From contig CAXXDV010000001.1 of assembly GCA_963674745.2 (NCBI GenBank), positions 2,528,001 to 2,592,000 on the forward strand: a stretch of DNA of 64,000 bases, in the 5' to 3' direction. The first letter of the stretch is position 1; each line of letters begins with the position of its first letter. The notes under the pieces are model-generated. The model was not told where the DNA came from. It saw only the letters and a list, made by a program, of their open reading frames with translations, and did no database searches. This document shows positions 10,882 to 59,179 of the stretch, one piece after another. Made by a program: the position numbers and the translations under genes. The stretch comes from Desulfosudaceae bacterium. GTDB lineage: Bacteria; Desulfobacterota; Desulfobacteria; Desulfobacterales; Desulfosudaceae.

Positions 10882-13800
10882 ATGACGGATAACAATAAAA
10901 ACAATACCTCAGCATCAGAAGATATCGCCATTATCGGCATGTCCTGTATTTTTCCGGGTGCTTCAGGGATCGATGAATACTGGCAGAATATTTTATCCTG
11001 TGTCGACTGTATCAGCGACGCCCCTCCTGAAGCGTGGGACCAGGGCGTGCTTTATGACCCCGAAAGTGATGCCAAAGACAGGGTTTATTGTAAACGGGGC
11101 GGGTTCCTTCATGAGAAGGAAAGAATGTTTAATCCGTTGAAGTACGGTATCATGCCCAGCGGTGTAGAAGGCGCGGAGCCGGACCAGTTTCTGGGATTGC
11201 GAGTTGCCCACGAGGCCCTGTCCGACGCAGGGTATCTTGACAACCCTGAAATAAAAGACCGCACCGCGGTCATTCTGGGCAGAGGTTCGTACGTCAATGC
11301 CGGACAGATGAATCTGGTCCAACATGGATGGATTGTTGAACAGACCCTTCAGATATTAAAACGCCTTCATCCCGAGTACGCGGATGACCAGCTGAAAGAA
11401 ATCAAAAATGAGCTCGTATCCGGCCTGCCGCCTTTAATCGCGGAAATCGTACCCGGTCAGGTCCCGAATATTGCGGCCGGTCGTATCGCCAACCGTCTGG
11501 ATTTAAAAGGGCCGAGCTTTACGGTGGATGCCGCGTGCGCGTCTTCACTGATCGCTCTTGATATGGGGCTCAAATCATTGCGCAGCCGTGAATGCGACCT
11601 GGCCATTGTGGGTGGTATGCAGGGCGGCAATACGGTGCTTTCTTATTTAATGTTCTGTCTGATAAAAGCCTTGTCCAGGAGTTCCCGGATCCGGCCGTTT
11701 GATCAAAACGCGGATGGCACGATATTGGGGGAAGGCGTTGGTATGGTGGTTTTGAAACGGTTGGCGGAGGCCGGTAAGGATGGTGACCGCATTTATTCGA
11801 TTGTCAAGGGGATGGGGACAGCCAGCGACGGTCGCGGGATGGGCATATTGGCGCCACGGCTGGAAGGTTCGGCCCTGGCCGTAGAGCGCGCCTATCAGAC
11901 AACCGGCCTTTCCCCTGCCACAATCGGCCTGATGGAAGCCCATGGAACAGCCACAATCGCGGGAGACACAACAGAATTCAGTGCGTTGCATTCGGTCTTC
12001 GGAAACAGGAAGGGGAAATTGCCCCGGTGCGCCATCGGATCGGTCAAGTCGATGATCGGCCATTCGCTGGGCGCGGCCGGTATCGCCGGATTGATCAAGG
12101 CCTCCCTTGCCCTTTATCATAAAGTGCTGCCGCCCACCTTGAACTGTACCGAGCCGAACAGCAAGCTGGGGCTTGACCGGTCCGGTTTTTATATTAATAC
12201 CGAAACCAGGCCCTGGATCCACGGATCTGCGGAAACCCCGAGGCGTGCCGGCGTCAACTGCATGGGGTTCGGCGGCATCAATGCCCACGCGGTGCTTGAG
12301 GAGTATACGGAAAAGAGTGCGGCTCAAACGTCCAGTTGCCATAAACGCTGGGACAGTGAAGTTTTTATTTTTCAGGGAGATTCGCGCCAGACGCTGATCA
12401 GCCGGGCCCGTCAGGTGCTTGATTTCATTTCCGCCTCGCCGGACGTGGATCCAAAAGACCTTGCCTATACATTGAACAGTACGCTTTCGAAAAAGACCTG
12501 CCGTCTTGCCATTGTGGCTTCCGCGATTACGGATTTGGAAAAAAAGCTGGCCAACGCGCTTGAACGTCTGGCCGATCCCGAATGTAAACGCATCATGTCC
12601 CGGGGGGGTGTTTATTTTTTTGCCGAACCATTGAAAAATAATGGTAAACTGGCTTTTCTGTTTCCGGGTGAGGGGTCGCAATACGTTAACATGCTTTCCG
12701 ATCTGTGTATCCATTTTCCTGAAGTAAGAAAACGCTTTGATCGCATTGACGGGATATTCAGCGGGCATTCAAGAGATTTTGTCCCCAGTGATTTTATCTT
12801 TCCGCGTCCGGTATTCAGCGAGACGGATAAAAAGGCCGCCGAAGAAAATTTATTCAAGATGGATGTGGCCGTTGAGGCGGTTTTAACGGCCAACGATGCA
12901 TTGCTTGATATCCTGAACAATCTGGATATCCGTCCGGACGCGGTTCTCGGCCACAGTACGGGGGAATACTCTTCCATGCGGGCCGCCGGAATCCTGAACA
13001 TTACCGACAGTGCGGACAGCGATCAGTACCTCCTTGCCCTGAACAAAAGCTATGAAGAGATAGCCGCAAAGGGCGAAATCCCCCGTGCCGTCCTGGTTGC
13101 CGTGGCCGCGGATTCAGAAAAAGTGGCGTCAATAATTGAGGCAACGGGTGGCCGGTTGTTTATTGCCATGGACAACTGTACCCTTCAGACCGTTATCGCG
13201 GGCGCCCCGGAATATATGGAAGTTGCCGTCAAGGCGTTGAAACGGCAAAGTTTGATGTATCAGACCTTATCTTTTGACAGACCTTATCATACGCCGTTGT
13301 TCAAGGAGTTTGCCGAAGGTCTTTCCCGTTTTTACGACCAGTGGCCTGTCGTCCCCCCCTCGACGCCGATTTATTCCTGTACCACCGGCGACCTGTTCCC
13401 CGATGATGTCACGGCTATTCGCAGGATTGCCGTTGACCACTGGCTCATGCCGGTACGGTTCAGGCAGACAATTGAAAAAATGCACGCCGATAATGTGCGG
13501 CTTTTTGTTGAAGTGGGGCCAAGGGGCAACCTGACGGCATTTGTAAAAGACATTCTCGGCCGCCGGGATCATTTATCGATTGCCCTCAACACGACGCGGC
13601 GTTCCGGGATTACCCAGCTTAATCATGTAGTGGGAATGCTGGTCGCCCACGGTGTGGACGCACGGCTGGATTATCTTTACAGTCGCAGGGATCCCCGAAA
13701 ACTGACATTCGACGGCACCGAAAACGGCCGCACCAAAAGCAATGAATCTAAAGGCATCATGACGTTGTCGCTCCAGTTCCCGCGGATGAAGTTGCGGAAT

Positions 13801-16188
13801 GTCTCCCCGTCTATGAAGCCCCCGGTCGCAGCAGAAGCCGGTATGGAAAAACACTTCAATACATTAACCATGCTGGCACAGACTTTGGGCACAGGCAGTG
13901 AGGACATGAATATCCCTTCCTCTGATGCCGGTTCTCTGGTCATGCAGGAATATGTCAAGACAGTGGAAAAAATCATTGACGTCGAGCAGGCGCTGATGCA
14001 TCAGTTTCTGGATGATACCACGGGAGCAGCATCCCTGCCGCTTCAAGAGCCGGTGGCCAATTCTGGCCAGCCCCAAAAGAGCGTCACCCCGACTGTCGAC
14101 ATGCCTGGCGATGATGATCAGCCGCTTCCTTCTTCCGGCGGGACCGCATTTGAAGATATTAAGTTCAGGCTCCTGGAGCTGGTCGCGGCGTTTACCGGAT
14201 ATCCTTTGGAGATGTTGGACCTTTCGCTGGGCCTGGAGGCCGACCTGGGCATCGATTCGATCAAGAGACTGGAAATACTGGGAAAGTTATGGGACAACAC
14301 GCCGGAGCTGGACTCTGATGATCTTGAGGAAATTGCCGCACTAAAAACGCTTAAAGAGATGATTCAGCGCATCAGTGAAAGTGTTGACGCCAAACGAAGC
14401 CCTCCGGCAGATGCGGAGCCGGGCGTGACGGATAACCCCGGAAACGAGACCGGGGGGATGGCCCGGCCTGATACCGGGCAGCCCCTGATCGACCGGATTG
14501 TTTCATTTGTGCCGAACCAAAAGCTGGAAGCCTTATCGAATTTTGACCTTGATGAGGCGGTTTTTCTTCATCACCATACCATCGGGCGTAAAGTGTCGGC
14601 TACCGATGACAACCTTACTGCTTTACCGGTCATGCCGCTGACCATGAGCATGGAGATACTGGCCGAAGCCGCTTCAATACTTGTGCCCGATAAGGTTCTG
14701 ATCGGGATGAACGATATCAGGGCGTATCGATGGATCGCATTTGAGCAGCCTTCCGTTTCCCTGAAAATCAAAGCCTTTCGAAAGCCCGGAACCAACGAGG
14801 TGAAGGCTGAAATCTGCATTGCTGAAGAAAAGGAACCGGCAACAAAGAACCCGCTTCTGGAAGGCGTGCTGGTTTTTGCCGATAACTACCCGCCGGCACC
14901 GGCCGTTGAGCCTTTTACACTTCAAGGCGAGAGGGCTTCCAGGTGGACGCCGGAAGCGCTTTACGCCAAAGGCATGTTCCACGGTCCGTGCTGGCAAGGT
15001 GTCCAGTCTGTTGATCTCTGGGGTGAGGACGGCACCACGGCGACATTTAAAGTGCTGCCGACGGACGGTTTTTTTCAGTCCAATAAAAGCCCGCAATTTA
15101 TAACAGACCCGGTTGTACTTGATGCTGCCGGGCAAGTCGTCGGCTTCTGGACAATGGAACATCTGGAAGACAACGTTCTTGTATTCCCTTATCGCGCAAA
15201 GCGGCTGCGTATCTTTTGCCCCCGTCCGTCCGTAAACCAGGCGGTCGGTTGCCGGGCCAGGATAAGGCTTATGGATTTTAACCGTGTTTCTTCTGATATT
15301 GACATGATTAATGCGGCGGGAGATCTCTGGATGCGTCTTGAGGAATGGGAGGATAAACGGTTTGACCTGCCGCCGGCCGTGTTGCAATTTCTTCTCTCAC
15401 CCCTTACGGTGATGCCCAGTGAAACCTGGAAAAAGCCTGTTGCCTTATGGGAGAATTCATCTCTATACCATTGCTGCCGTCTTGAACGGCTTTTTACAGG
15501 CGATGATGATTTCTGGAAGATTGTTTTTTCACATCTCATCCTGAATCATAAAGAGAGGCAGGCTTTTTCAAATCTGGGTAAATCAAACACGCGTCAGGTG
15601 CAATGGCTCATGGGAAGGCTGGCAGCCAAAGATGCCGTGCGGAAGATGTTACAACAGGTATATAATATAGTGGCCGGGCCGGCAGATGTCGAAATAGCGC
15701 AGGACGAGTACGGATGCCCGGAGCCGACCGGGAAATGGGAAGACAGGGTTGAAGGCCCTTTGCGGCTTTCTCTTTCTCATACGACAGGCATTGCCGCGGC
15801 GGTTGCGGGCCTTCCGGGTAGCGGAATCGGTATGGGCATAGATGTCGAGTGCCTGGATCTTCGCCGGGAAGGGATTGATAAGATTGCCATGAGCCCGGAA
15901 GATCGCGATCTGTTAAAACCCGTTTCGGCAAATGCTGAAGAAGAATGGGTGCTCCGGATATGGTGCGCCAAGGAGGCTTTAAGCAAGGCCTTAGGGCGTG
16001 GCCTGTTGGGCAAACCAAGGGACCTTATTGTGAAAAAGCTGGATCAGAAAACCGGCGACGTCAGTCTGGAAATATCGGGGGCGTTCGCCAGGGAATTCCC
16101 GGCGCTCAAGGGTATAATACATCAAATTCAAACATTACGTGAAGAAGATATTATAGTCGCCAGTGCAATGATTAACAGAGGAGATTGA
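10882..16188 (+). CDS. Type I PKS: KS-AT-ACP-DH(double hot-dog)-4'-phosphopantetheinyl transferase
   Basis: KS DAACASS / EAHGTAT / GHSLGAAG; AT FPGEGSQ, GHSTGE, RPYHT; ACP DLGIDSI; DH HHTIG...PVMP and DPVVLDAAGQ; Sfp-type PPTase GRLAAKDA, SLSHT, GMGIDVE, WCAKEALSKALG. Confidence 0.92.
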   Translation: MTDNNKNNTSASEDIAIIGMSCIFPGASGIDEYWQNILSCVDCISDAPPEAWDQGVLYDPESDAKDRVYCKRGGFLHEKERMFNPLKYGIMPSGVEGAEPDQFLGLRVAHEALSDAGYLDNPEIKDRTAVILGRGSYVNAGQMNLVQHGWIVEQTLQILKRLHPEYADDQLKEIKNELVSGLPPLIAEIVPGQVPNIAAGRIANRLDLKGPSFTVDAACASSLIALDMGLKSLRSRECDLAIVGGMQGGNTVLSYLMFCLIKALSRSSRIRPFDQNADGTILGEGVGMVVLKRLAEAGKDGDRIYSIVKGMGTASDGRGMGILAPRLEGSALAVERAYQTTGLSPATIGLMEAHGTATIAGDTTEFSALHSVFGNRKGKLPRCAIGSVKSMIGHSLGAAGIAGLIKASLALYHKVLPPTLNCTEPNSKLGLDRSGFYINTETRPWIHGSAETPRRAGVNCMGFGGINAHAVLEEYTEKSAAQTSSCHKRWDSEVFIFQGDSRQTLISRARQVLDFISASPDVDPKDLAYTLNSTLSKKTCRLAIVASAITDLEKKLANALERLADPECKRIMSRGGVYFFAEPLKNNGKLAFLFPGEGSQYVNMLSDLCIHFPEVRKRFDRIDGIFSGHSRDFVPSDFIFPRPVFSETDKKAAEENLFKMDVAVEAVLTANDALLDILNNLDIRPDAVLGHSTGEYSSMRAAGILNITDSADSDQYLLALNKSYEEIAAKGEIPRAVLVAVAADSEKVASIIEATGGRLFIAMDNCTLQTVIAGAPEYMEVAVKALKRQSLMYQTLSFDRPYHTPLFKEFAEGLSRFYDQWPVVPPSTPIYSCTTGDLFPDDVTAIRRIAVDHWLMPVRFRQTIEKMHADNVRLFVEVGPRGNLTAFVKDILGRRDHLSIALNTTRRSGITQLNHVVGMLVAHGVDARLDYLYSRRDPRKLTFDGTENGRTKSNESKGIMTLSLQFPRMKLRNVSPSMKPPVAAEAGMEKHFNTLTMLAQTLGTGSEDMNIPSSDAGSLVMQEYVKTVEKIIDVEQALMHQFLDDTTGAASLPLQEPVANSGQPQKSVTPTVDMPGDDDQPLPSSGGTAFEDIKFRLLELVAAFTGYPLEMLDLSLGLEADLGIDSIKRLEILGKLWDNTPELDSDDLEEIAALKTLKEMIQRISESVDAKRSPPADAEPGVTDNPGNETGGMARPDTGQPLIDRIVSFVPNQKLEALSNFDLDEAVFLHHHTIGRKVSATDDNLTALPVMPLTMSMEILAEAASILVPDKVLIGMNDIRAYRWIAFEQPSVSLKIKAFRKPGTNEVKAEICIAEEKEPATKNPLLEGVLVFADNYPPAPAVEPFTLQGERASRWTPEALYAKGMFHGPCWQGVQSVDLWGEDGTTATFKVLPTDGFFQSNKSPQFITDPVVLDAAGQVVGFWTMEHLEDNVLVFPYRAKRLRIFCPRPSVNQAVGCRARIRLMDFNRVSSDIDMINAAGDLWMRLEEWEDKRFDLPPAVLQFLLSPLTVMPSETWKKPVALWENSSLYHCCRLERLFTGDDDFWKIVFSHLILNHKERQAFSNLGKSNTRQVQWLMGRLAAKDAVRKMLQQVYNIVAGPADVEIAQDEYGCPEPTGKWEDRVEGPLRLSLSHTTGIAAAVAGLPGSGIGMGIDVECLDLRREGIDKIAMSPEDRDLLKPVSANAEEEWVLRIWCAKEALSKALGRGLLGKPRDLIVKKLDQKTGDVSLEISGAFAREFPALKGIIHQIQTLREEDIIVASAMINRGD

Positions 16189-16189
16189 T

Positions 16190-16504
16190 GTGAAAACCGG
16201 AACTGAGGGAGATAACACAGCCAAAAAAAATATCATAGATGATGTTTTGCATATCCTGGAGGAAATGACTTGTGACTGGGATCTGGAGCTTGACGGAGCT
16301 TTAGGCCAGGACACCAGACTCATCGCTGATCTTGAATTTGCTTCAATAGACATCGTGCAGTTTCTCGTCGCCATCGAAGAACACTATCAGCGCCGGGAAT
16401 TCCCCTTCGAGGAACTTGTCATGAAAGACGGCAGATATGTCGACGAAATCCTGGTAGATGACGTCATCACTTTTTTAGACAACCATCTGAACAGGTCATC
16501 CTGA
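16190..16504 (+). CDS. Free-standing acyl carrier protein
   Basis: 104 aa, acidic; DTRLIADLEFASIDIVQF corresponds to the ACP Ser motif; directly follows the PPTase-bearing PKS. Confidence 0.85.
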   Translation: MKTGTEGDNTAKKNIIDDVLHILEEMTCDWDLELDGALGQDTRLIADLEFASIDIVQFLVAIEEHYQRREFPFEELVMKDGRYVDEILVDDVITFLDNHLNRSS

Positions 16505-16513
16505 GGAGGCATA

Positions 16514-18118
16514 ATGAATCGAACAGTATTAATCGGACTTGATGGCGCCACCTTTACCATTCTTGACCCCCTAATGAACAACGGCGTTATGCCTTTCCTC
16601 AAGAAGTTTGTTGAGCAGGGTGTGCGGGCCGGGCTGATGTCCACCACCAATCCCCTCACGCCGCCGGCCTGGACCACATTGATGACAGGCCGCAGTCCGG
16701 GCAATCATGGTGTGTTTGATTTTATCTGGGCGGAGGAACGGGAGACCAACCATTATTTTACGCTTTACAATTTTCGTGACATCCGTTGTGAAACCATCTG
16801 GTCTATTGTCAGCAGGCAGAACGGGGAAGTGTGCTCGCTCAATTTCCCTTTTATGGCGCCGCCACCGTCTGATGCCGGGTATATCGTTCCGGGGCTGGTC
16901 TCATGGAAACACCTGCGCCTTAATGTGTCCCCTGCAGAGCTGTTTCCGAAATTGAAGGAAATTGAGGGCTTCAATGCCAAAGAACTGGCCTGGGATTTTG
17001 ACATGGAGGATAAGGCGGCCAAGGGCGTTCCAAAAGAGGATTTCGAAAACTGGGTTGATTTTCATATCCGTCGAGAGAAGCAGTGGTTTAACATCGCGCG
17101 TCATATTATGAAGAACGACCCCCGCGATCTGATGGCCATCCTCTTTGACGGACCGGACAAGCTTTTACACATGGGTTGGCGTTTTCTTGACCCGAACTTA
17201 TTCCCCGAAAACCCGTCTGCCTGGGAGCAGAAAATTCGTGATTTATGCCTGGATTACTTTCGCGAACTGGACGGCTTTATTGAAGAAATCGCAGACATTG
17301 CCGGGCCTGATGCAAGAATATTTATCGCCTCCGATCATGGTTTCGGGCCTTCATGGCATGTTTTTCGTGTCAATACATGGCTGCAAAGCCAGGGATATCT
17401 GACCTGGCTGGATCTTGATGCAATGAATGAGAAAGACAGGAAAAGCGCTGAAAAAGTCGCCCAGAAGCATTTTGTCATGCTGGACTGGGACAAGACGACG
17501 GCTTACGCCCGGACGATTACGTCCAACGGTATTTATATACGTGTGGCCAAAGGCCCGAATCAAACAGGGGTGCCGCCTGAAAAATATGAGGCGTTCAGAA
17601 AGGAGCTGATGGAAAAGCTGCTGGCTGTCCGGGACCCTGAAACCGGCAAGCCGGTTGTCAAGCGGATTTTAACCAGGGAGGAAGCATACCCCGGCACCAA
17701 CAATGAACAGGCGCCTGACCTGCTGCTGGCCATGGATGATTGCAGCTTTTTATCTATTTTCAACAAGAGCCCTGTTATTTATAAGCGACCGGAGGTTGAA
17801 GGCACCCATTATCCTGAAGGCGTGTTTATGGCCAGGGGGCCGGGCATCTCTAAAGGCGCTTCACTATCCAGGCTTTCCATCATTGATGTCGCGCCGGCAC
17901 TTCTGCACAGTCTCGGTCTGAAGATACCTTCTGATTTTGAAGGCGGTGTGCCCACCGGGGCCTTTGACGCTTCGTTTTTAAAGTCGCATCCGCCGACTGG
18001 GGGTGAACCGACCAGGCCGGTAGAAACCTTTACCACCCAGGGCGAAAAATCAAAAGCGGATAAAGCAGAGGAAGATCATATCTATAAACAAATGAAAGCC
18101 CTGGGATATATGGAGTAA
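16514..18118 (+). CDS. Alkaline phosphatase superfamily / type I phosphodiesterase-nucleotide pyrophosphatase
   Basis: IGLDGA, PLTPPAWTTLMTGRSPGNHGVFDF (Thr nucleophile), DKLLH, ASDHGF, GTHYPEG and C-terminal KALGYME; GAGGAGG RBS. Confidence 0.88.
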   Translation: MNRTVLIGLDGATFTILDPLMNNGVMPFLKKFVEQGVRAGLMSTTNPLTPPAWTTLMTGRSPGNHGVFDFIWAEERETNHYFTLYNFRDIRCETIWSIVSRQNGEVCSLNFPFMAPPPSDAGYIVPGLVSWKHLRLNVSPAELFPKLKEIEGFNAKELAWDFDMEDKAAKGVPKEDFENWVDFHIRREKQWFNIARHIMKNDPRDLMAILFDGPDKLLHMGWRFLDPNLFPENPSAWEQKIRDLCLDYFRELDGFIEEIADIAGPDARIFIASDHGFGPSWHVFRVNTWLQSQGYLTWLDLDAMNEKDRKSAEKVAQKHFVMLDWDKTTAYARTITSNGIYIRVAKGPNQTGVPPEKYEAFRKELMEKLLAVRDPETGKPVVKRILTREEAYPGTNNEQAPDLLLAMDDCSFLSIFNKSPVIYKRPEVEGTHYPEGVFMARGPGISKGASLSRLSIIDVAPALLHSLGLKIPSDFEGGVPTGAFDASFLKSHPPTGGEPTRPVETFTTQGEKSKADKAEEDHIYKQMKALGYME

Positions 18119-18130
18119 GAGGCTGTCTGT

Positions 18131-19342
18131 ATGGGTTCGGTTAACTGCAAAGGTGTAACGATCAATTACCGGACCGTGGGAAAAGGTGAAGATGTCGTCT
18201 TGATCCACGGACTGGGCGCAAATTGCGCTTTCTGGCACCTTAATGTCCTTCTCTCCCTTAGCAGGAAATACAGGGTCACGGTCTATGACCTTCGGGGGCA
18301 CGGATACAGCTCCATGCCATTATCCGGTTATACCACCGTTGACATGGCGGAAGACCTCCACTGTCTGCTCAATCACCTGGGGATTAAAAAAGCCCATCTG
18401 GTGGGTCACAGCCTGGGGGGGGGCATTGCGTTGCAGTACGCGGTTTTGTTTCCTGACCAGGTTGCCAGCCTGATTGTCGCAGATGCCAGAATACGCTCCA
18501 TTCAGCCGACGCATTTTGCCAGGGATTGGCCGAATTGGAGAACTGTAAAAAAACATCTGGAAAATATCGGGCTTTCCATTCCCGAGGATGAATCCGAAGC
18601 CGGTATATGGCTGTTGGAAAAACTGGCTTCGCCTGAATGGCAGCGGAACAGGCATAAACTGAAAGGGCGAAGCCTTTTTGTCCCATTCAGCAAGTGGGGT
18701 GGGGGCAATAGCACGGCCGAGAAGTTTCTGGCCATGTTATACGGTACATCGGCCAGACAGGAATTGAATTTGCCTGACGGATTGACGCTGGACCGACTGG
18801 CCGGTATCCGGCAACCGGCCCTGCTGATGTATGGGGAAAATTCTCCATCGCTGTCGTCGTTACATGGTTTGAGACAGCACCTGCCGGCCTCTCGAAGTGT
18901 TGTTGTCACCGGCGCAGGGCATTTTTTCCCTCTTTCACGGGCGAAATTTTTTGTGGGTATCGCCGAGCGTTTTTTAGACATGGTGTGTAAAAATGAGCGC
19001 AGGCTGTATGAACGAGTCCCCTGCAGCTTCCTGGTGGGGATCAGGGCAAAAGGGGCGGAACGGTTTCCAGCCGAGGTCCTGAATATATCCAGCCAGGGGC
19101 TTTTATTAAAGAGTTCAAAAAAACTGGAGATAGGCAGTGGCGTTGAAATCATTACCGGCTTGTCCCATGCCTACGACATATCCACTGAAGGCAGAATCGT
19201 AAGAGCCATACATGATAATGATGGCGAAAGACTGTTGGGTATCGAGCTGGATTTGCATGAAGATGCGGGGCTGGTGTGGAATAGTCTTCTAGCGGAACAG
19301 CTGGGGACCAACCTTACGGACATTTTGCCGAATGGCACTTAG
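18131..19342 (+). CDS. Alpha/beta hydrolase (possible thioesterase) fused to a C-terminal PilZ domain
   Basis: LIHGLGA, YDLRGHGYS, GHSLGG and GAGHFFP; C-terminal ERRLYERVP (RxxxR) and NISSQG (D/NxSxxG). Confidence 0.85.
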   Translation: MGSVNCKGVTINYRTVGKGEDVVLIHGLGANCAFWHLNVLLSLSRKYRVTVYDLRGHGYSSMPLSGYTTVDMAEDLHCLLNHLGIKKAHLVGHSLGGGIALQYAVLFPDQVASLIVADARIRSIQPTHFARDWPNWRTVKKHLENIGLSIPEDESEAGIWLLEKLASPEWQRNRHKLKGRSLFVPFSKWGGGNSTAEKFLAMLYGTSARQELNLPDGLTLDRLAGIRQPALLMYGENSPSLSSLHGLRQHLPASRSVVVTGAGHFFPLSRAKFFVGIAERFLDMVCKNERRLYERVPCSFLVGIRAKGAERFPAEVLNISSQGLLLKSSKKLEIGSGVEIITGLSHAYDISTEGRIVRAIHDNDGERLLGIELDLHEDAGLVWNSLLAEQLGTNLTDILPNGT

Positions 19343-19469: not shown

Positions 19470-20504
19470 GTGAAAAAGTGTTTTTTTTTCTGGTTTGCAA
19501 TATCTTTAATCATGCTTTCCAATTATGAGGTAGCGGCTTTGGCCAAAAATGAGCTTATTCAGTTTCGCAAGCCGGTTAAATCGATACGGCACCGCCTGAT
19601 TCCGCCAAAAGCGTTTTCCTATGGTGCCGGTGATTACCGCAGAACCTTAAAAGGGGATTTTGGAAACCGGTTTTATGATATCCATGTGCCTCCCTCATAT
19701 CACAAGGAAAAGCCTGCTCCCCTGGTGATGGTTTTCCACGGCGGCGGCGGTGATCCCGGGAGCGTGAGGTATGAATCCGATATGGACAGTACTTCCGACA
19801 GGAACGGCTTTATTGTCGTCTATCCGGCCGGAACGCCCACCAGAATGCTTTTCAAAGACAGGTTGTTGATTTGGAATGACGGCCGTGCTTTTAAAAACGG
19901 TGAACACAGTGAGGTTGATGATGTCGCCTATGTCGATGCCTTACTCGAAGACCTGTCGCAACTGTTCAATGTGGATAAAAAGCGGATATATGCCTGCGGT
20001 TATTCAAACGGTGCCCAGTTAACCTTCCGGCTGGCAAAAAGACGTTCTGATGCAATCGCGGCGATTGCGGTCGTCGCCGGGCAGAGACCGCCCGAAGACG
20101 CTTATGACCCGGTTCCGTCGAGGCCGATTCCTTTGATGCAGTTCGCCGGCGTAGGGGACACTTTCAGCCCGTATGAGGGGGGAAAACCGCCAAAAGACGC
20201 GGCCTTTAAAGCCGAAATTAAACCTGTACGGCAGACGGTTAAAGCGTGGGCTGATTTTAATAAATGTAAGCCGGAACCGGTTGAAGAAAAACGGATCGGC
20301 AATGCCGTGATGCGGCGCTATGGGTATTGTCAGTCAGGCGCTGAGGTGGTTTTCTGGACGCTTGAAGACGGTGGCCATACATGGCCGGGCGGCAGGGTAA
20401 CGCCGAATGTAGAAGCTTTGGGGTTGGGGAGCCTGGGGAAAGTGAACACGGATATTAATGCCTCGGATTTAATGTGGGCTTTTTTTAAGAAATATTCCCT
20501 TTAA
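19470..20504 (+). CDS. Secreted esterase, LpqC/PHB depolymerase family
   Basis: Signal-peptide-like N-terminus; PLVMVFHGGGG, GFIVVYPAG, VDDVAY, GYSNGA and GGHTWPGG. Confidence 0.85.
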   Translation: MKKCFFFWFAISLIMLSNYEVAALAKNELIQFRKPVKSIRHRLIPPKAFSYGAGDYRRTLKGDFGNRFYDIHVPPSYHKEKPAPLVMVFHGGGGDPGSVRYESDMDSTSDRNGFIVVYPAGTPTRMLFKDRLLIWNDGRAFKNGEHSEVDDVAYVDALLEDLSQLFNVDKKRIYACGYSNGAQLTFRLAKRRSDAIAAIAVVAGQRPPEDAYDPVPSRPIPLMQFAGVGDTFSPYEGGKPPKDAAFKAEIKPVRQTVKAWADFNKCKPEPVEEKRIGNAVMRRYGYCQSGAEVVFWTLEDGGHTWPGGRVTPNVEALGLGSLGKVNTDINASDLMWAFFKKYSL

Positions 20505-20584: not shown

Positions 20585-21775
20585 ATGAGCCACAGCGCTT
20601 TATCTGGTATCCGGGTGGTTGACTTAACCCATTATACGGCCGGGCCGTATTGCACCAAATTGATGTCGGGATTTGGTGCCGAGGTCGTCAAGGTGGAACG
20701 GCCTTTAACAGGCGATGCCATGCGGTCTTTCGGCCCCTTTTTTCAGGACAGGCAAGACGTTGAGACAAGTATCCCTTTTTTATGGCTGAACACCGGTAAG
20801 AAAAGTGTGACCCTGGATTTTAAAACAGAAAAAGGCCGGGAAGTTTTAAAAGACCTTATCCGGGAGGCCGATGTGGTGGTTGAAAGTTTCTCTCCCGGTG
20901 TCATGCAGCGGCTTGGCCTGGATTATGAAACAGTCAGAAAGCTTAAACCGGGTATTGTTATGACATCGATTTCCAATTTTGGACAATCGGGGCCGTATAA
21001 AGACTTCAAGGCCGATGAAATAACGCTGAATGCCCTAAGCGGCGGCATGTCTGTGACGGGCGAACCGGAAAAAGAACCGCTTGCCGCAGGACCGTCCATT
21101 TATCAGTATACAGCAGGGCAACACGCCTATATCGGAACGCTTATGGCCCTTTTTCAGAAGGGCGTTGACGGAAAAGGGCAATATGTCGATGTGTCCATTC
21201 AGGAGAGCGGATTGGAACATATCGAAATTTTATTGTCATATAACCTGCAAAAGGGAGAAAACAAAAAAAGAGGCGGACATATGTTTGTCCCATGGGCCAC
21301 CTATGATTGTCAGGATGGATATGCCGCCGTTATTGCCATGCCCTATCGCCATTGGCACCGGGCCGCCGAAATTTTTAAAGACCCCGTTCTTTTTGACGAA
21401 AAATATGATCACCTGCTGAACAGAATAAAAGACCGCACTGAATATGAAACGCGGTTAAAGGCCTGTGTAAAAACCATGCCCAAAAAAGACCTTTTTCACG
21501 CCGGCCAGGCCCGTCAACTTGCCTTTGGATATATTGCCGATCTTAAAGACGTGACTGAATCACCCCAGCATGAGGCCCGGCGCTTTTTTAAGGAAATCGA
21601 TCATCCGATGACCGGAAAACATAAATACTGCGACGCGCCCTTTATGATGTCGGAGACGCCCTGGAAATCATTGCGCGCGCCGTTTTTGGGGGAGCATAAC
21701 GACGAGATATTCAAGGGGCTTCTCGGCTATGGTGAGGATGAAATAAAACAGTTGTCGGAACGGGAAATAATATGA
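20585..21775 (+). CDS. Class III (CaiB/BaiF) CoA-transferase subunit, probably non-catalytic
   Basis: LSGIRVVDLT, AGPYC, GAEVVKVE, NTGKKSVTLD and APFLGEHN; Gln at the expected catalytic Asp position (SIYQYTAG). Confidence 0.88.
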   Translation: MSHSALSGIRVVDLTHYTAGPYCTKLMSGFGAEVVKVERPLTGDAMRSFGPFFQDRQDVETSIPFLWLNTGKKSVTLDFKTEKGREVLKDLIREADVVVESFSPGVMQRLGLDYETVRKLKPGIVMTSISNFGQSGPYKDFKADEITLNALSGGMSVTGEPEKEPLAAGPSIYQYTAGQHAYIGTLMALFQKGVDGKGQYVDVSIQESGLEHIEILLSYNLQKGENKKRGGHMFVPWATYDCQDGYAAVIAMPYRHWHRAAEIFKDPVLFDEKYDHLLNRIKDRTEYETRLKACVKTMPKKDLFHAGQARQLAFGYIADLKDVTESPQHEARRFFKEIDHPMTGKHKYCDAPFMMSETPWKSLRAPFLGEHNDEIFKGLLGYGEDEIKQLSEREII

Positions 21776-22986
21776 AAAGAAAACGGCCCTTAACCGGTAT
21801 TCGTGTTCTGGATTTGTCCCACAGCTGGGCGGCCCCGCATTGTGGCAGAATCCTGGCGGACTTCGGCGCCGAGGTGATCAAGGTCGAGTATATCAGAAGG
21901 CTCTGCCTTCTTCGGGGGGCAAAAAAAGACCCGCAGATATATAACAATCACCCCGGCTGGCTGCAGGTGAACAGAAACAAATATGCCATCACGTTAGACT
22001 TGAAAGAAACGGGCGATCGTGAGATATTTATAAATCTCATCAGGATTTCCGATGTGCTGATCACGAATTCAAGGACCGGTGTCATGGAAAAGCTTGGCTT
22101 CGGGTATGCCGATATTATCAAGATTAAAAAAGATTTAATCGTCCTGTCCATGTCTTCTTTCGGAAACACGGGGCCATATGCTTATTATTCGGGATACGGT
22201 GCTGTCTTTGAAGCCGTTGGCGGCATTAACAGCCTTACCGCTTATGATAAGGACAGCCGGCCCTGCCGGATCAAGGAAGTTGATGTCACAAACGGCTCGG
22301 CCGGCGCAAGCGCCGTAATGACGGCACTTATTTATCGTCAAAAAACAGGGCGGGGACAATATATCGACCTGTCACAGCTTGAAGCCGCCACCCATGCAAC
22401 TATAGGTGAACATTTACTGGCATTTGAAATGGACGCGGAACAGACCCTGCCGAACGGTAACCGGCATTGGAAGTATGCGCCCCGGGGATGCTACCGGTGT
22501 AAAGGGGATGATAAATGGGTCGTTATTACTGTCCGGTCAGAGGGTCAATGGGAACGGTTTTGTGACGTTCTGGGACATCCCGAGTGGAAAACGGATGGAC
22601 GGTTTATGTCCGTTTCGCAAAGGATTGTCAACCATGATGAATTGGACAAATTGATTGATACCTGGACCGGTGTGCGTGAAAACATGGAAGTCATGACCCT
22701 GCTTCAGGAAAATAATATTTGTGCCGGTGCGGTACTTGATGTGGAAGACCTCGGCGGAAATCGTCACCTGATTGATAGAGATTACTTTGTTTGTGAAGAA
22801 GAATCCTCTGATATGCGTTTTTTGGGGATGCCTTTTGTTTTGTCCCGGGGCGCCGGGAGGGTCGCATGGCGCGGGCCTGCACTGGGCAGTCATAACGAAC
22901 ATGTCCTGTGTGATTTACTTGGGATGTCAAAAAAAGATGTCAGGCCTTTGACGGCAAATGAGGTCGGCACAGCCTTTGATAAATAG
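21772..22986 (+). CDS. Class III (CaiB/BaiF) CoA-transferase subunit, probably catalytic
   Basis: LTGIRVLDLS, LADFGAEVIKVE, NRNKYAITLDLK, EVDVTNG (Asp retained) and GPALGSHN; ATGA overlap with the previous gene. Confidence 0.88.
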   Translation: MKRKRPLTGIRVLDLSHSWAAPHCGRILADFGAEVIKVEYIRRLCLLRGAKKDPQIYNNHPGWLQVNRNKYAITLDLKETGDREIFINLIRISDVLITNSRTGVMEKLGFGYADIIKIKKDLIVLSMSSFGNTGPYAYYSGYGAVFEAVGGINSLTAYDKDSRPCRIKEVDVTNGSAGASAVMTALIYRQKTGRGQYIDLSQLEAATHATIGEHLLAFEMDAEQTLPNGNRHWKYAPRGCYRCKGDDKWVVITVRSEGQWERFCDVLGHPEWKTDGRFMSVSQRIVNHDELDKLIDTWTGVRENMEVMTLLQENNICAGAVLDVEDLGGNRHLIDRDYFVCEEESSDMRFLGMPFVLSRGAGRVAWRGPALGSHNEHVLCDLLGMSKKDVRPLTANEVGTAFDK

Positions 22987-23078: not shown

Positions 23079-25418
23079 ATGTATAGCAAAACGGTAAGGA
23101 ATAATGCATGCTCCGGGCTTGACCGCTGGAGTTTCCGAAAGGTGGGGCCGAACGGTCTGGGCGACCCTTATAACTGTTATCCGCATTCAATGGCCTGGTT
23201 CCAGGATCACCTTTATGTCGGCACCACCCGTGCCAACCTTGCCAGCAGGGCCAAGCAGATTCAGAGCAATACCCCTGAAAAAATGAGCAAGGTATGGCCT
23301 GTAAAAATACCCGAAAAGGCCCTGGACAGCCCGCTACGAGCCGAAATATGGCGTTATAATCCGGCTGCCGACGAGTGGCGTAACCTGTACACCGCCCCGA
23401 TGGTGATAGGCATTGACGGTTTTGAAGTGCCCATAAGCGTGGGGTTCAGATGTATGGCGGTGTTCCAGGGGCCCCGTGATTCGTCACCGGCGCTTTACGC
23501 GCCCACCTGGGCCAGTCATCAGACCCCGGCAACAATAATGCTGAAAACGACTGACGGCGTTCATTTTGAAGCGGTATCAGAGCCCGGGCTTGGAATAACC
23601 CAGAACACCCCGAGGTCGTTGCGCGGTATTGTCAGTTTTAAGGGTTACCTCTTCACCTCTCCAGTGGTCGGACAGAAAAGACTGGAACCCAATATCGCCG
23701 GAGAGGCGGTTGTCTATTGCAGCGCTGATCCGGATCATGGCGCCTGGCAGTTTGCCTGTGAAACCAGTTTCGGGGACCCGAATAACGTCAGTGTTTTTCA
23801 CATGGCCGCCTCCGACGAGTATTTTTATGCCGGAACACTTAATATTTACGAGGGATTTCAGATATGGAAAACCGATGCGGAAGGGGGGCCGCCGTTTAAA
23901 TGGAAAAAAGTCGTTTCCAATGGCGCCTATCGGGGAAAATTAAACCAGATGGGGATGACACTGGTCTATTTTAAAGGCTGTATTTTTGTGGGCAGTGCCA
24001 TACAGAATTGCAGCTGGGATCATGACTATAAAGTGGGGCCGGCAGCTCCCGAAGTCATCCGTATCAACCCGGATGACTCCTGGGATCTGATTATGGGAGA
24101 GCCGCGCATGACGCCTGAAGGCCTCAAGGTGCCTTTAAGCGGTCTGGGCCCTGGATTCAGCGATCCTTTTGCGGGTTATATCTGGTCCATGTGTGTGCAT
24201 GAAGGCTGGCTGTACGTCGGCAACGCTGTCTGGGCAAATTTTCTGCGCTATTCTGACCGGCTGGACAAACTGCCCAAGATTCTGCGTAACATACAGCACC
24301 CGGAGAATCTTGAAAAACTTCTTCAAGATTTTGGCGGTTGTGATCTGTGGCGGACCCGTGATGGCGTTAACTGGCGGCCGGTAACCATTAATGGCTTCGG
24401 TAATTGCTTTAACATCGGGTTCCGGAATATGGTTTCATCCCCTTATGGCCTTTTTGTCGGCGCAGCCAATCCGTTTGCGCCCGAGGTGGCTGTGAAGCGG
24501 ATTGCGGGCTGGAAGTATGAAGAAAACCCTGTGGGCGGACTTGAGATATGGTTCGGCTCCCATGAACATGGAAACCCGCCCGGGCGCGCGGAGAATGAAC
24601 TTGTACCCGGAAAGATAGATGACGGCCAATACGTTGTTCTTAAAGAAAATGAAAGCGACGAAGACGCGTTTGAAAGGCATATCAATACCTTTTACGGCAA
24701 CAGCAATTTCCGTCATTTCGGCATGTGGAAGATCGGCATAAATGATGCCAGGGTCGCATGCGAAAACCTGATGGGTGAGATACTGGCCTTTATTCCAGAC
24801 GAGGATGGGCGTGTCCTTGATGTCAGCTGTAACATGGGCGCTTCAACGCGTCGTTTGTCGAAAAGCTTTCCGCCTCAAGCGGTAACAGGAATCACTTCAG
24901 ATGAAGAACTGCTGGCGGTGTGTAAAAGAACGGCTCCTGAAGCAAGATTCCTTTGCGGGAAGATTTCGCGGCTGAACCTTGATGACGCTTTTTTTGATTC
25001 GGCCGTTATGATTAAAGGCTTCTACAAACTCGGGGCGAGAGCCAGGCTATTTTCGGAAATTCATCGCGTGCTGCGGCCGGGTGGACGATTTGTGGGTTTT
25101 GACGTGCTTTATGACCCCCCAAACGCAAATACCGGCTGGCGCAAACTTGATAGACGGAAGCGCCATGTTGAAAATATAGATGAATATCGGCACCTTTTGC
25201 ATGAGGCCGGGTTTGATGATATTATGTTCATCGACGTGACGGAGGCCTGTCTCAATGGTTTCCGGATGCACATGGAAAGATATTTTGCATTGAAACATAT
25301 CGGTGGTGATCTCAATGACGATATGCTGCAAAAAATAAAAGATTTTTTTAAGCCCGATAAACCTGCGGTCAGCGGGTGCTTTTTCGTATTATGCCGCAAG
25401 CCGGAAACGGGGTCGTGA
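23079..25418 (+). CDS. Repeat-containing (beta-propeller-like) protein fused to a C-terminal SAM-methyltransferase-like domain
   Basis: Recurring G(L/F)GDPxN...M...LYVG units in the N-terminal ~490 aa; C-terminal HFGMW, VLDVSCNMG and EIHRVLRPGG. Confidence 0.7.
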   Translation: MYSKTVRNNACSGLDRWSFRKVGPNGLGDPYNCYPHSMAWFQDHLYVGTTRANLASRAKQIQSNTPEKMSKVWPVKIPEKALDSPLRAEIWRYNPAADEWRNLYTAPMVIGIDGFEVPISVGFRCMAVFQGPRDSSPALYAPTWASHQTPATIMLKTTDGVHFEAVSEPGLGITQNTPRSLRGIVSFKGYLFTSPVVGQKRLEPNIAGEAVVYCSADPDHGAWQFACETSFGDPNNVSVFHMAASDEYFYAGTLNIYEGFQIWKTDAEGGPPFKWKKVVSNGAYRGKLNQMGMTLVYFKGCIFVGSAIQNCSWDHDYKVGPAAPEVIRINPDDSWDLIMGEPRMTPEGLKVPLSGLGPGFSDPFAGYIWSMCVHEGWLYVGNAVWANFLRYSDRLDKLPKILRNIQHPENLEKLLQDFGGCDLWRTRDGVNWRPVTINGFGNCFNIGFRNMVSSPYGLFVGAANPFAPEVAVKRIAGWKYEENPVGGLEIWFGSHEHGNPPGRAENELVPGKIDDGQYVVLKENESDEDAFERHINTFYGNSNFRHFGMWKIGINDARVACENLMGEILAFIPDEDGRVLDVSCNMGASTRRLSKSFPPQAVTGITSDEELLAVCKRTAPEARFLCGKISRLNLDDAFFDSAVMIKGFYKLGARARLFSEIHRVLRPGGRFVGFDVLYDPPNANTGWRKLDRRKRHVENIDEYRHLLHEAGFDDIMFIDVTEACLNGFRMHMERYFALKHIGGDLNDDMLQKIKDFFKPDKPAVSGCFFVLCRKPETGS

Positions 25419-25517: not shown

Positions 25518-27452
25518 ATGAAAAAGATGAAAAATATTTTACTGGTAAACCCGAAGTATCGACTGGAAATTCGATGGATTTCCAGCAAGAAGGAAATTGA
25601 TGTAAAAGCGGATTATTTTCCGTTGGGTTTGGGCACTGTCGCGGCACTGACGCCTGAAGGCTGTCATGTGGACATATGGGATGAACTCGTCCGCGGGGAG
25701 GTCGAAAAAGCTGACCTTGACAAAAAGTACGATCTGGTCGGTGTCACCAGTCACAGCGCCAACCTCGGGCGGGCCAATGAAATAGGCGCCTATTTTAAAC
25801 AAAAGGGGATTCTTACGGCGATTGGCGGTCCCGGCGTTACATCAAACTCGCACCGATGCCGCAAGGGGTTTGATATCCTTTTTATAGGGGAAGCCGAACT
25901 GACCTGGCCCAGATTTGTAAGAGAGTGGCAGAGCGGCAGCTATAAACCCGAATACCGTCAGATTGACAAACCGGATATTTTGTCAAGTCCCGCGCCTGAC
26001 TGGCGAAGCATCGAATCTGATGTGGATAAATATGCCATGGGAACCGTCCAGACAACCAGGGGGTGCCCTATCGATTGCGAGTTCTGTGACGTCATCTATC
26101 TGCATGGCCGCCGGCAGCGCTATAAATCCATTGACCAGATATTGAAAGAAGTCCGGGCACTCGAGCAGCTGGGGGTAGAAAGCATCTCTTTTAACGATGA
26201 TAATTTTACGATCGCGCACAAAAGGGCTAAAGATGTATTGCGGGCATTAATCACCTTGAACAACTCTTTTTCAAAACCGTTGCGGTTCATGACCCAGTTG
26301 GGCATTGACATCAGCCGGGATGAAGAAATGCTGGAGCTGCTGGCAGACGTCAATATGTATGAAGTGCTGATAGGCATTGAATCCCCGAATAAAGATTCTT
26401 TAAGAGAGGCCGGTAAATTTAACAATTTGAAAGGAGACCTGGTCGCCGAAGTGCGCAAGGTGCTTTCCTATGGCATTGCCGTGCGGGGCGCCATGATTAT
26501 CGGCTTTGATCATGATGACCAGGATATCTTTGAGCAGCAGTATCAATTTATCCAGGAGACCTGCCTGCCTTCTATCTCCATGCACATGCTTAATGCGCCG
26601 GTGGGCACCAGGCTGTGGCGCAGACTCCATGCGGAAGGGCGGGTGATAGACGCTTTTGCCATAGCGGACAAATCCACCCAGCGGCTGTTTAACAACATTA
26701 TCCCAAAGCGCATGAGCAGAGTGGAGCTGATGGAGGGATTTGCGGATTTGTACGAAAAGCTTTTTAGCTGGGAAAGTTTTAAGGAACGCATGTTCGGATT
26801 CGTTTCGCTGGTAAACCGCCCGCCCAAAATCCTGAGGGAAGAAGAGTCATTGCAGGAGCTGCTGGCCCTTGGGCCGGACATGAACCTTGACAAGGAATCC
26901 TGTGGCGCCCTGGCTGAAATTTTCGAGTTCACTGATAAAACGGCGCCATTCTTGCTGGGGCGGGTCAGGGAACTGGCCATCCAGTTTGTCCGGTACCGTC
27001 ACTCCGCGTATGACTTTATTCCGGGCTTGAGGCAGCAGATAGAGCTGGAATCTTCGGGTAAACTGCAGATCAAACTCGACGACAGGCCGATTCCGATACC
27101 GGATGGTTTCAGGCAGGAATTTGATGCCATATTTCCGTCTGTACAGCAGCGGGCGGTCCGGAATCTGATTGATAAAAGTAAGGTTCCCGAAGTGCTGGTC
27201 GATGTTTTTGTGGACTTTCTTATCCATGAAGAGGGCTTCAGTAAACTGGAGGATTATCATATCACTTACCTGAACGAAATCGTCGACAGTGCCTGTACCA
27301 GGGTGAACGGACAGGCGCCGGCAGGCGCCGTACCGGCGGAGACCGCGGATAACGGGGGCGGGGATGAAAACAGTAAGCGCCTGAAGGATGATGTTCTGAT
27401 CGGCGTGGAGCACGAACTTATGAAAATGCAGCTCGCGCAGCAGGCGGTTTGA
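25518..27452 (+). CDS. B12-binding radical SAM protein with a long C-terminal extension
   Basis: ILLVNP, PLGLGTVAALTP, IGGPG, GEAE, TTRGCPIDCEFC, DDNF, IGIES and IIGFDHD. Confidence 0.9.
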   Translation: MKKMKNILLVNPKYRLEIRWISSKKEIDVKADYFPLGLGTVAALTPEGCHVDIWDELVRGEVEKADLDKKYDLVGVTSHSANLGRANEIGAYFKQKGILTAIGGPGVTSNSHRCRKGFDILFIGEAELTWPRFVREWQSGSYKPEYRQIDKPDILSSPAPDWRSIESDVDKYAMGTVQTTRGCPIDCEFCDVIYLHGRRQRYKSIDQILKEVRALEQLGVESISFNDDNFTIAHKRAKDVLRALITLNNSFSKPLRFMTQLGIDISRDEEMLELLADVNMYEVLIGIESPNKDSLREAGKFNNLKGDLVAEVRKVLSYGIAVRGAMIIGFDHDDQDIFEQQYQFIQETCLPSISMHMLNAPVGTRLWRRLHAEGRVIDAFAIADKSTQRLFNNIIPKRMSRVELMEGFADLYEKLFSWESFKERMFGFVSLVNRPPKILREEESLQELLALGPDMNLDKESCGALAEIFEFTDKTAPFLLGRVRELAIQFVRYRHSAYDFIPGLRQQIELESSGKLQIKLDDRPIPIPDGFRQEFDAIFPSVQQRAVRNLIDKSKVPEVLVDVFVDFLIHEEGFSKLEDYHITYLNEIVDSACTRVNGQAPAGAVPAETADNGGGDENSKRLKDDVLIGVEHELMKMQLAQQAV

Positions 27453-27515: not shown

Positions 27516-28931
27516 ATGGAAGATTTTGTCCCTCAGCTTGAAGGACTGGGCCTTAGCCCGCAGTCACAATTGTTGGTGGCCTATACGCATTTTATGAACG
27601 GGGATGGGGCTCAGGCGATCCAGCGATGTAAAAACGCCCTGAAGATGAACCCTAAATACACCGACGCCCACCTGCTGCTGGCCAAGGTATACGCCGGTCT
27701 TGGAAACAGCGACGAGGCGATGGCGGCGTGCAGGGATGCCCTGGCCGTCGATCCGGATCTGGCCAAAGGTTTCCTGATGCTGGGATCAATTTATCAGGAC
27801 CAGGGTTCGTATCCTGAAGGGATCGCCGCCTGCCGGAAATCGCTGAAAATCGATCCGGATGATCCGACAGGTCATTTTCTGCTTGGCGAGATGTATGCCC
27901 TGCAGGAACAGTTTGAGGATGCCGTGCGTGCCTTCCAAAAGGCCCTGAAATTAAATCCGCAGCTTGAGCTGGCGTATTATAAACTTGCCGCCGCATACCA
28001 GGCGCAGGGGATGACTGCTGAAGCCCTGCAAGAGGTGAGAAAAGCGTTAGAGCTGAATCCCATTGTGGCCCGCACGAGAATCCTTTTAGGTGACATTTAT
28101 TTTGCCCAAAAAGAGTACGAAAAGGCCCTTTCCGAATATCAGGAGGCCCTTACAAACAATCCGCAACTGGCCGAAGCACATCAAAAAGCAGGTGAAGCCT
28201 ATTTCAAGCTGGAGAAGACCCACCAGGCTATTTTGGAGTATCGGATTTCATTGCTCATTAACGCAAAATCGGTTGAGGCCCATGTCGGGCTTGCCCATAT
28301 TTATTTTACGACCGGCCGGTATGGCGTGGCGGTTTCCGAATATAAGGCGGCCTTGCATTTGAATCCACATTTATTGTCGGCTCGTGCCGGGCTTGCCGAT
28401 GCCCATGTCATGAATGAACAGTATGCGGAGGCGGTCGATCAATATCGCGCCGCCCTTGAACTGGCAGAGGTTAAATGTGAATCCGGCGATCAATGCCTGG
28501 AAAATGAGCAATATAATGAGGCGATTGCTTTATACCGGTCAACACTGGGCCTGGATGAGGCGCTGCATCCCGTTCATGACAAAATCAAGACAAGCAGTTC
28601 ATGGCATCCTCTGGTAAGCAGGAGGAAGCATGAACGGATCCCGATGAGAGTCCCTGCGGAGATCCGGACGAAGGATGGTGTTCCTTACAGTGTCGAGAGC
28701 GTTGATGTTTCTAAGCAGGGTATTTTAATTGAAAGCAGCAAGCCCATACAGGTCGGTTCTGAAGTAGAGGTTTTGCTTTTGCCTGAAGGCGAAAAAGATG
28801 CGATCCCCCTTGTCGGCCGGGTTGTCAGGGTCGCAAACCCGGATCGTCCTGACAAGCAGTTCGGGATTGAGCTGGCACCCGATGCCGATGATGCGTGGGG
28901 TGCTATTTTAGGTGAGGACTGTATCATGTAA
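27516..28931 (+). CDS. TPR-repeat protein with a C-terminal PilZ domain
   Basis: About nine TPR units (A...LG.....G....A.....KAL..NP); C-terminal SRRKHERIP and DVSKQG. Confidence 0.88.
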   Translation: MEDFVPQLEGLGLSPQSQLLVAYTHFMNGDGAQAIQRCKNALKMNPKYTDAHLLLAKVYAGLGNSDEAMAACRDALAVDPDLAKGFLMLGSIYQDQGSYPEGIAACRKSLKIDPDDPTGHFLLGEMYALQEQFEDAVRAFQKALKLNPQLELAYYKLAAAYQAQGMTAEALQEVRKALELNPIVARTRILLGDIYFAQKEYEKALSEYQEALTNNPQLAEAHQKAGEAYFKLEKTHQAILEYRISLLINAKSVEAHVGLAHIYFTTGRYGVAVSEYKAALHLNPHLLSARAGLADAHVMNEQYAEAVDQYRAALELAEVKCESGDQCLENEQYNEAIALYRSTLGLDEALHPVHDKIKTSSSWHPLVSRRKHERIPMRVPAEIRTKDGVPYSVESVDVSKQGILIESSKPIQVGSEVEVLLLPEGEKDAIPLVGRVVRVANPDRPDKQFGIELAPDADDAWGAILGEDCIM

Positions 28932-31364: not shown

Positions 31365-31373
31365 GGAGGTCTG

Positions 31374-37338: not shown

Positions 37339-37362
37339 TGGTGTTGTGGAGGATAAGGCGTT

Positions 37363-46614: not shown

Positions 46615-46618
46615 TGTT

Positions 46619-49133: not shown

Positions 49134-49148
49134 AAGTGTCGTAAAGAT

Positions 49149-50234: not shown

Positions 50235-50346
50235 GCATGAATGATCCAGATAAAATATGATTGATCAAACCACCCTGGAGAGCGGCATCTTTTTAACAGA
50301 ATGCCTTCCAGAAACATTTAACGGAATTTTCAAGGGGTAAACGGGA

Positions 50347-51078: not shown

Positions 51079-51097
51079 TGGCGCGTGCTTCATTTTT

Positions 51098-54604: not shown

Positions 54605-54617
54605 ATCAGCTTATCCG

Positions 54618-57212: not shown

Positions 57213-57219
57213 TGGAAGC

Positions 57220-59166: not shown

Positions 59167-59179
59167 CCGTTTTTCATTA

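Follow-up and report, generated by a model that had tools for sequence, protein, structure and literature searches.

A PilZ domain fused to an alpha/beta hydrolase in a widespread polyketide synthase cluster family: a candidate for direct c-di-GMP control of a PKS-pathway enzyme

Direct control by c-di-GMP is known for polysaccharide synthases; polyketide and lipid pathways are controlled by it mainly via transcription. Alg44 and BcsA, like the protein described here, carry a canonical PilZ domain, with both the RxxxR and the [D/N]hSxxG motif, on a biosynthetic component, and BcsA is also among the PDB profile matches reported below. Their operons hold TPR and export genes as well, as here, and c-di-GMP-controlled matrix-polymer operons combine a PilZ enzyme, a TPR protein, an export channel, and a depolymerase-like enzyme. 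Our protein differs from both: its PilZ domain is accessory and is joined to a soluble serine hydrolase from a polyketide synthase (PKS) pathway instead of a glycosyltransferase or membrane adaptor. A PilZ domain joined to a soluble enzyme has been described in Myxococcus xanthus, where PixB, a PilZ-PilZ-GNAT acetyltransferase, binds c-di-GMP in vitro (10.1101/2021.03.04.433885). PixB belongs to another enzyme class, has two PilZ domains, acts in motility and development, and is not placed in a biosynthetic cluster in the available part of that source. With PilZ on a soluble enzyme already exemplified by PixB, the kind of device reported here is known and its target is new.

For the PKS genes, the nearest described systems are the Pfa-type synthases (PfaA/PfaB; types A to T of Shulse and Allen), with which the cluster shares a first PKS scoring above the PfaA cut-off, tandem ACPs, and a second AT without the malonyl Arg. 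In contrast to these synthases, the cluster has no PfaD enoyl reductase in the window, its PPTase is fused to PKS2, and a free ACP, an alkaline-phosphatase-superfamily (AlkP) enzyme, and the hydrolase form its conserved core. The lipid synthase types of Shulse and Allen (PMC3098273) included no match to the cluster in the portion of the text compared. In the open literature we found no PilZ-hydrolase or PilZ-thioesterase fusion, no direct c-di-GMP control of a PKS enzyme, and no account of this cluster, although supplement tables or subscription journals could list such a fusion; the earlier note's statement that no characterized precedent was known agrees with this search.

The window is a 64,000-nucleotide stretch of contig CAXXDV010000001.1 of a Desulfosudaceae bacterium (assembly GCA_963674745.2), the host genome in what follows. 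The ORF from 18131 to 19342 (+) encodes 403 aa and divides as follows.

18131 to 18988, + strand: alpha/beta hydrolase domain, aa 1 to 286 (PF00561, conservation over 278 rows, model, fold searches)
18410 to 18412, 18482 to 18484, and 18920 to 18922, + strand: hydrolase codons of S94, D118, and H264
18995 to 19303, + strand: canonical PilZ domain, aa 289 to 391 (PF07238, motif counts, modeled secondary structure, PDB profile matches)
19001 to 19015, 19082 to 19099, and 19202 to 19204, + strand: RxxxR, NISSQG, and the third conserved Arg (R358) of PilZ

The earlier note had read this gene as a hydrolase with a PilZ tail and had proposed an HMM search and a fold prediction as checks; both bear it out. 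A Pfam scan of the protein placed Abhydrolase_1 (PF00561) at aa 22 to 268 with 114 bits and PilZ (PF07238) at aa 289 to 377 with 37.1 bits (E = 4e-9; cut-off, 22.5), and the motifs named in the note lie where it had put them, GHSLG giving S94, GAGHFF giving H264, RRLYER giving R291/R295, and NISSQG giving N318 to G323. An AlphaFold2 model of the fusion protein from a 121-row alignment had a pLDDT of 92.8 and a pTM of 0.82, and its tail formed six strands between residues 295 and 373 followed by a C-terminal helix (377 to 391). As a single sequence, the tail returned just two chance matches in the PDB (E about 0.7). With a profile of 13 tails, six PDB sequences came up at E <= 0.1, none of them strongly (E = 0.003 to 0.01): YpfA, BcsA (three entries), and "type IV fimbriae assembly protein" (two entries), which we take to be PilZ domains. 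The tail agrees with the canonical PilZ layout and the [D/N]hSxxG definition given in the available part of 10.1101/814665. Because the same tail is found on 31 of the best 120 protein homologues, a share biased toward the fusion by the full-length query, the fusion is more than chance. It is real, and it joins a canonical, motif-intact PilZ domain to an intact hydrolase. We predict that this PilZ domain very probably binds c-di-GMP, although a motif-intact PilZ domain need not do so: PlpA is reported as nonbinding in the part of the source available (10.1101/2021.03.04.433885).

The genes between 5271 and 33434 share a single strand and are spaced by -4 to 127 nt. Besides the fusion gene, they are as follows.

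5271 to 10844, + strand: PKS1, PfaA-like, KS-AT(malonyl type)-ACP-ACP-KR (Pfam, TIGR02813, AT Arg in 16/16)
10882 to 16188, + strand: PKS2, KS-AT-ACP-DH-PPTase with a PfaB-like AT (Pfam, AT motif counts in 75 homologues)
16190 to 16504, + strand: stand-alone ACP of a cluster-specific type (weak NCBIfam ACP matches, all below cut-off)
16514 to 18118, + strand: alkaline-phosphatase-superfamily (NPP-like) enzyme (PF01663)
19470 to 20504, + strand: PHB-depolymerase-like esterase with a hydrophobic N terminus, putatively secreted (PF10503; NF050058, 144 bits versus a cut-off of 150)
20585 to 22986, + strand: two family III CoA-transferases (Pfam)
23079 to 25418, + strand: conserved domain of ~490 aa of no Pfam family, fused to a methyltransferase
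25518 to 27452, + strand: radical SAM enzyme related to B12-binding families (orthologue fused to the hydrolase elsewhere)
27516 to 28931, + strand: TPR protein with a C-terminal PilZ domain 35% identical to that of the hydrolase
29019 to 32780, + strand: membrane domain-HlyD fusion and TolC-family outer-membrane channel, for export (Pfam, NCBIfam)
32826 to 33434, + strand: sulfotransferase (Pfam)

As the earlier note had observed, the fusion gene (18131 to 19342) lies two genes downstream of the ACP gene (16190 to 16504), and neither PKS has a thioesterase (TE) domain in Pfam and NCBIfam scans, PKS1 ending in KR and PKS2 in PPTase. PKS1 reached 1,238 bits with TIGR02813 (PfaA; cut-off, 1,010) and PKS2 only 733, below the cut-off. 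Neither a PfaD enoyl reductase nor a PfaC-type KS-CLF-DH-DH protein was found among the 42 window proteins scanned, and the Pfam and NCBIfam scans gave no match to a PHA-synthase family. Rfam models, including those of c-di-GMP riboswitches, gave nothing at cut-off within the window, and there was no plasmid match at E <= 1e-30. S52 of the stand-alone ACP is nearly invariant in 89 rows; one orthologue (L068:15884-16159) has Leu in place of the phosphopantetheine Ser.

Several other features of the window deserve mention. The two ACPs of PKS1 (window ~8530 to 9130, aa ~1090 to 1285) are almost identical in sequence, which suggests a recent duplication. The AlkP enzyme has no close solved structure (best E = 2e-4); it might, speculatively, act on the product or on the phosphopantetheine phosphodiester of the ACP. 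The ~490-aa domain (23079 to 24550) was detected in 50 of 80 genome loci, a count that may include methyltransferase-only matches; its Atlas clusters are nameless or auto-named "putative exo-alpha-sialidase," and its repeats would fit a beta-propeller. The membrane domain at 29019 to 30260, which is fused to HlyD, weakly resembles HExxH intramembrane proteases (93 bits versus a cut-off of 300) and, by eye, lacks an intact HExxH, so that it is possibly a noncatalytic export component. Further along, the window holds a carbamoyltransferase and a SET-domain protein (35464 to 37980) and another block with radical SAM, glycosyltransferase, and TPR genes (45622 to 60616).

Conservation of the hydrolase domain was assessed over 278 rows (265 distinct), from which duplicate loci and tail-less rows cut by contig ends had been removed beforehand. 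A GxSxG nucleophile, a catalytic His, and a conserved acid are all present in the alignment: S94 and H264 are each found in 278/278 rows and D or E at position 118 in 277/278. At position 238, where the acid normally lies after beta7, 272/278 rows have Ser or Thr (Ser238 in the query). Because position 118 is conserved as D/E and the beta7 site is Ser/Thr, D118, which in the model closes the strand that follows the nucleophile helix, is likely the third residue of the triad. Type I thioesterases likewise place their acid after strand beta6, and the PKS thioesterases of PF00975 are also alpha/beta hydrolases near ACP or PKS genes. However, PF00975 did not match the query at E <= 0.001, and fusion to a PKS was never seen in the loci examined. 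Among 11 distant orthologues, PF00975 gave weak matches in four, one of them above the cut-off. The best structural match listed was 8V16 (Z = 30.7; rmsd, 2.3 Å over 239 residues), and the structural neighbors among the matches listed are stand-alone esterases and C-C hydrolases. The top fold-search matches listed for the whole model were hydrolases, with no PKS thioesterase among them. 8V16, BphD, Est816, and YbfF share the fold (Z = 26 to 31; rmsd, 2.3 to 2.9 Å over 234 to 255 residues) and the Ser-His pair with the query but are at most ~26% identical to it, and none has a PilZ tail; the query further departs from such esterases and C-C hydrolases in having Ser238 instead of the usual acid after beta7 and a conserved D118 after beta6. 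The domain forms an orthologous group of its own with its relatives; it is intact as a hydrolase and is not recognizable as a PKS thioesterase.

The best 80 of 523 relatives in the genome collection came from Proteobacteria, Cyanobacteria, Planctomycetota, Acidobacteriota, Nitrospirota, and other phyla. Where at least 9.5 kb was available upstream, a PKS, ACP, or AlkP gene was present in the flank of 53/56 genome loci and 18/18 metagenome loci, and a PKS gene itself in 46/56 and 16/18, respectively. Among loci that extend 300 nt or more upstream, the AlkP gene lay immediately before the hydrolase gene in 53/79 from genomes and 60/72 from metagenomes (113/151 in total). Since these PKS, ACP, and AlkP neighbors recur, the hydrolase belongs to the core of a PKS-PKS-ACP-AlkP-hydrolase cluster found across phyla. 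Within the host phylum the family is sparse (8 of 400 other genomes and 4 of 60 relatives, with the fusion in only one of the latter). The host itself, which has dsrA along with 18 PilZ and 23 GGDEF matches, holds a second, divergent cluster (G000:C3:~337600-356000; L088, L089) consisting of two PKSs, an ACP, an AlkP enzyme, a hydrolase, a sulfotransferase, a 661-aa protein of unassigned family, a free AT, and TolC/HlyD/RND genes. Its hydrolase, of 294 aa, has no PilZ domain and is 34% identical to that of the query.

Across the fused tails, R291 and R295 are kept in 41/41, and R358 and the full pair of RxxxR and [D/N]hSxxG are each kept in 39/41; the ligand-motif columns are the most conserved of the tail, though the tails are mutually only ~30% identical. 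H264 and R291 are 27 residues apart in 30 of the 32 close relatives and 26 apart in two; in a distant fused clade the distance is 33. All PilZ-fused loci examined retain the AlkP-hydrolase order. In a single comparison, against G005, both domains had a dN/dS below 1 (hydrolase, 0.13; PilZ, 0.45). Base composition gives no support to the idea that the PilZ segment was acquired recently from elsewhere (GC, 0.50 versus 0.53; GC3, 0.55 versus 0.58). The tail is nevertheless patchily distributed. Of the 80 genome loci (the best among 523 relatives), only one has it on the hydrolase, and it is missing from 106 of 143 rows of the query's own large clade in the 278-row tree. On that tree (FastTree) the PilZ label changes at least 11 times, and on a 56-row mixture-model tree at least six times, with the starred branches forcing two; the trees are unrooted, so these changes count gain or loss alike. 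The earlier note's question of whether hydrolases of related clusters lack the PilZ tail thus has a clear answer: most do, the host's second copy included. Because most orthologues have no PilZ domain and the label changes often, the cluster pathway works without it. The PilZ tail is accessory but under selection where present. Three other hydrolase orthologues (L022:10001-11020, L143, and L159) end in short Arg-rich ERR...DRR tails without a Pfam match.

The PilZ domains of the hydrolase and of the TPR protein are related. On a 113-column tree built by a quick method from few columns, 40 of 41 hydrolase PilZ tails and four TPR-borne PilZ domains formed one branch (SH-aLRT, 97), which stands apart from 16 other PilZ domains of the host; P0028 falls outside the branch. 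When a profile of this subfamily was searched against 1.84 billion proteins, the best 150 matches included 42 single-PilZ proteins, comprising 21 TPR proteins, 12 hydrolases, and 9 fragments (72 to 133 aa) or unassigned proteins, and 108 multi-PilZ proteins that were left unclassified; the profile was built from hydrolase and TPR PilZ domains, so that confinement to these two protein types is partly circular. At one locus (L116:5695-7527) an EAL domain replaces PilZ on the TPR orthologue, and at another (L110) a TPR-PilZ protein occurs alongside a PilZ-less hydrolase. GGDEF genes were present in the flanks of L029, L031, L032, and L157, 4 of about 170 loci, which alone is no enrichment.

In 22 of 80 genome loci (for example, L073:10781-10984) the hydrolase bears a different domain, DUF6316, where PilZ would stand; all belong to one clade, from Rubrivivax, Ideonella, Pseudomonas, Neptuniibacter, one Nitrospirota genome, and one Myxococcota genome. 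Over 21 aligned tails, R13, R23, R26, W34, T38, R39, G45, P46, and A53 are invariant, including four arginines. The DUF6316 model (pLDDT, 74.8) consists of three strands and a helix, for which fold searches gave no match (best Z, 4.8; Foldseek E >= 0.9; no usable match in the Atlas), and the domain is named in no publication that we found in the open literature. A search of the host gave no DUF6316, but the control genomes came up empty as well. DUF6316 is a candidate new ligand-binding domain; that the ligand is a nucleotide would be a guess.

We tentatively favor, as a possibility somewhat under an even chance, a reading in which the hydrolase removes an acyl chain from the stand-alone ACP, either hydrolyzing it or transferring it to an acceptor, c-di-GMP tunes this step, and the product is a secreted lipid. 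PKS1 and PKS2 would assemble the chain, and the free ACP would likely receive it from the arginine-less AT of PKS2. Decoration would fall to the AlkP enzyme, the methyltransferase, the radical SAM enzyme, and the sulfotransferase; the hydrolase would free the chain, and HlyD/TolC would export it. In the query lineage, binding of c-di-GMP would order the RxxxR switch, which comes directly after the helix following the catalytic His264, thereby linking production to sessile life; the sister PilZ domain on the TPR protein would provide a second c-di-GMP input. The parts of this reading differ in strength. The hydrolase probably acts on an ACP-bound substrate, and whether c-di-GMP directly affects its catalysis is a prediction we consider evenly poised; that the enzyme specifically performs the final release is a doubtful prediction, though a serious one. 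Control need not be allosteric: given the sister PilZ domain of the TPR protein, the messenger may work through the assembly of a complex.

Final release might instead fall to PKS2, whose non-malonyl AT could off-load the chain as PfaB-type ATs do in PUFA synthases, leaving the hydrolase as a tailoring or proofreading esterase whose step is gated; we regard this as rather unlikely. The AT of PKS2 has Ser and His in 75/75 homologues, but the five residues most often found at its malonyl position do not include Arg, compared with a malonyl Arg in 16/16 for PKS1. PfaB also lacks this Arg and reportedly acts as a long-chain acyltransferase, other homologues having hydrolase activity, according to the available part of PMC12895367; the same part gives Tyr as the residue before the AT Ser in bacterial PfaB, whereas PKS2 has His. 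An AT of this kind may off-load the chain or hand it to the free ACP, and in the latter case, simple loading, a releasing enzyme is still required. Because a PfaB-like AT could off-load, the missing TE domain does not force a release role on the hydrolase. Fusions speak to the same question. The hydrolase is joined to a tailoring enzyme, the radical SAM enzyme, in 3 proteins among 3,109 candidates of 707 to 2,015 aa; neither these candidates nor the loci included a PKS-hydrolase fusion, but a PKS2-hydrolase fusion would exceed 2,015 aa and so lie beyond the reach of that protein search. B12 radical SAM fusions of the hydrolase are represented by P0121 to P0123 and L118, a methyltransferase-TPR-PilZ fusion is found in P0151, and the hydrolase and the ~490-aa domain share one open frame in L031 and L032. 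The radical SAM and methyltransferase-TPR-PilZ fusions suggest that the late enzymes (hydrolase, radical SAM, methyltransferase, and TPR-PilZ) would work as one complex. Against off-loading by PKS2 stands, besides the His before Ser, the placement of the hydrolase acid after beta6, where type I thioesterases have theirs. The earlier note's central proposal, direct c-di-GMP control of PKS release, is therefore upheld in part: an intact PilZ domain does sit on a hydrolase of a PKS/ACP cluster and the gate would be present in the query lineage, but the release role is weakened by the missing PF00975 match and the competing AT, and a gate lacking from most orthologues and the host's second copy is not universal.

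The role of the PilZ domain can also be read differently. It might be an adaptor through which c-di-GMP recruits the hydrolase to a TPR-PilZ scaffold or the export machinery with the catalytic rate unchanged, and the two sister PilZ domains within one operon, the combination at L110, and the fusion of TPR to a methyltransferase in P0151 would all fit; the linker from the catalytic His is, however, short and of uniform length among close relatives, and recruitment and allostery are compatible with each other, so that we consider pure recruitment unlikely. The resemblance of the operon to matrix-polymer systems, with its PilZ enzyme, TPR protein, export channel, and depolymerase-like enzyme, raises the thought that the enzyme extends a growing surface polyester or lipid with PKS-made units, as a transacylase or polymerase that c-di-GMP switches on in the manner of BcsA, and that the PHB-depolymerase-like esterase does the clearing. 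That esterase recurs in 19/80 genome loci, but the lack of a PHA-synthase family match and a TPR protein without an obvious signal peptide (by eye) make such a polymerase improbable. Least probable of all, with a low probability, is that the tail is a mere passenger and regulates nothing. It is labile, missing from most orthologues, evolves faster than the hydrolase, and comes from a host with 18 PilZ matches; on the other hand, its ligand residues are the best conserved across tails of ~30% identity, and its PilZ subfamily is confined to proteins of the PKS cluster.

On the favored reading, in which c-di-GMP tunes removal of the chain from the ACP, a broader possibility arises, that c-di-GMP directly gates off-loading from iterative PKSs for a secreted surface or biofilm lipid and that this control was wired repeatedly, through PilZ on the hydrolase, through PilZ or EAL on the TPR protein, and through DUF6316 in Beta- and Gammaproteobacteria. 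We hold this broader view to be unlikely; if it were true, DUF6316 would be a new c-di-GMP receptor domain. The analysis gives DUF6316 a testable function, and orthologues with PilZ, with DUF6316, and without a tail offer natural controls, two of them within one genome. It also exposes a widespread, apparently uncharacterized PKS cluster family with cultured hosts in Rubrivivax, Ideonella, Solimonas, Pseudomonas, Bosea, and Tumidithrix. If c-di-GMP does bind this PKS-pathway enzyme directly, it would represent a new mode of posttranslational control of an assembly line.
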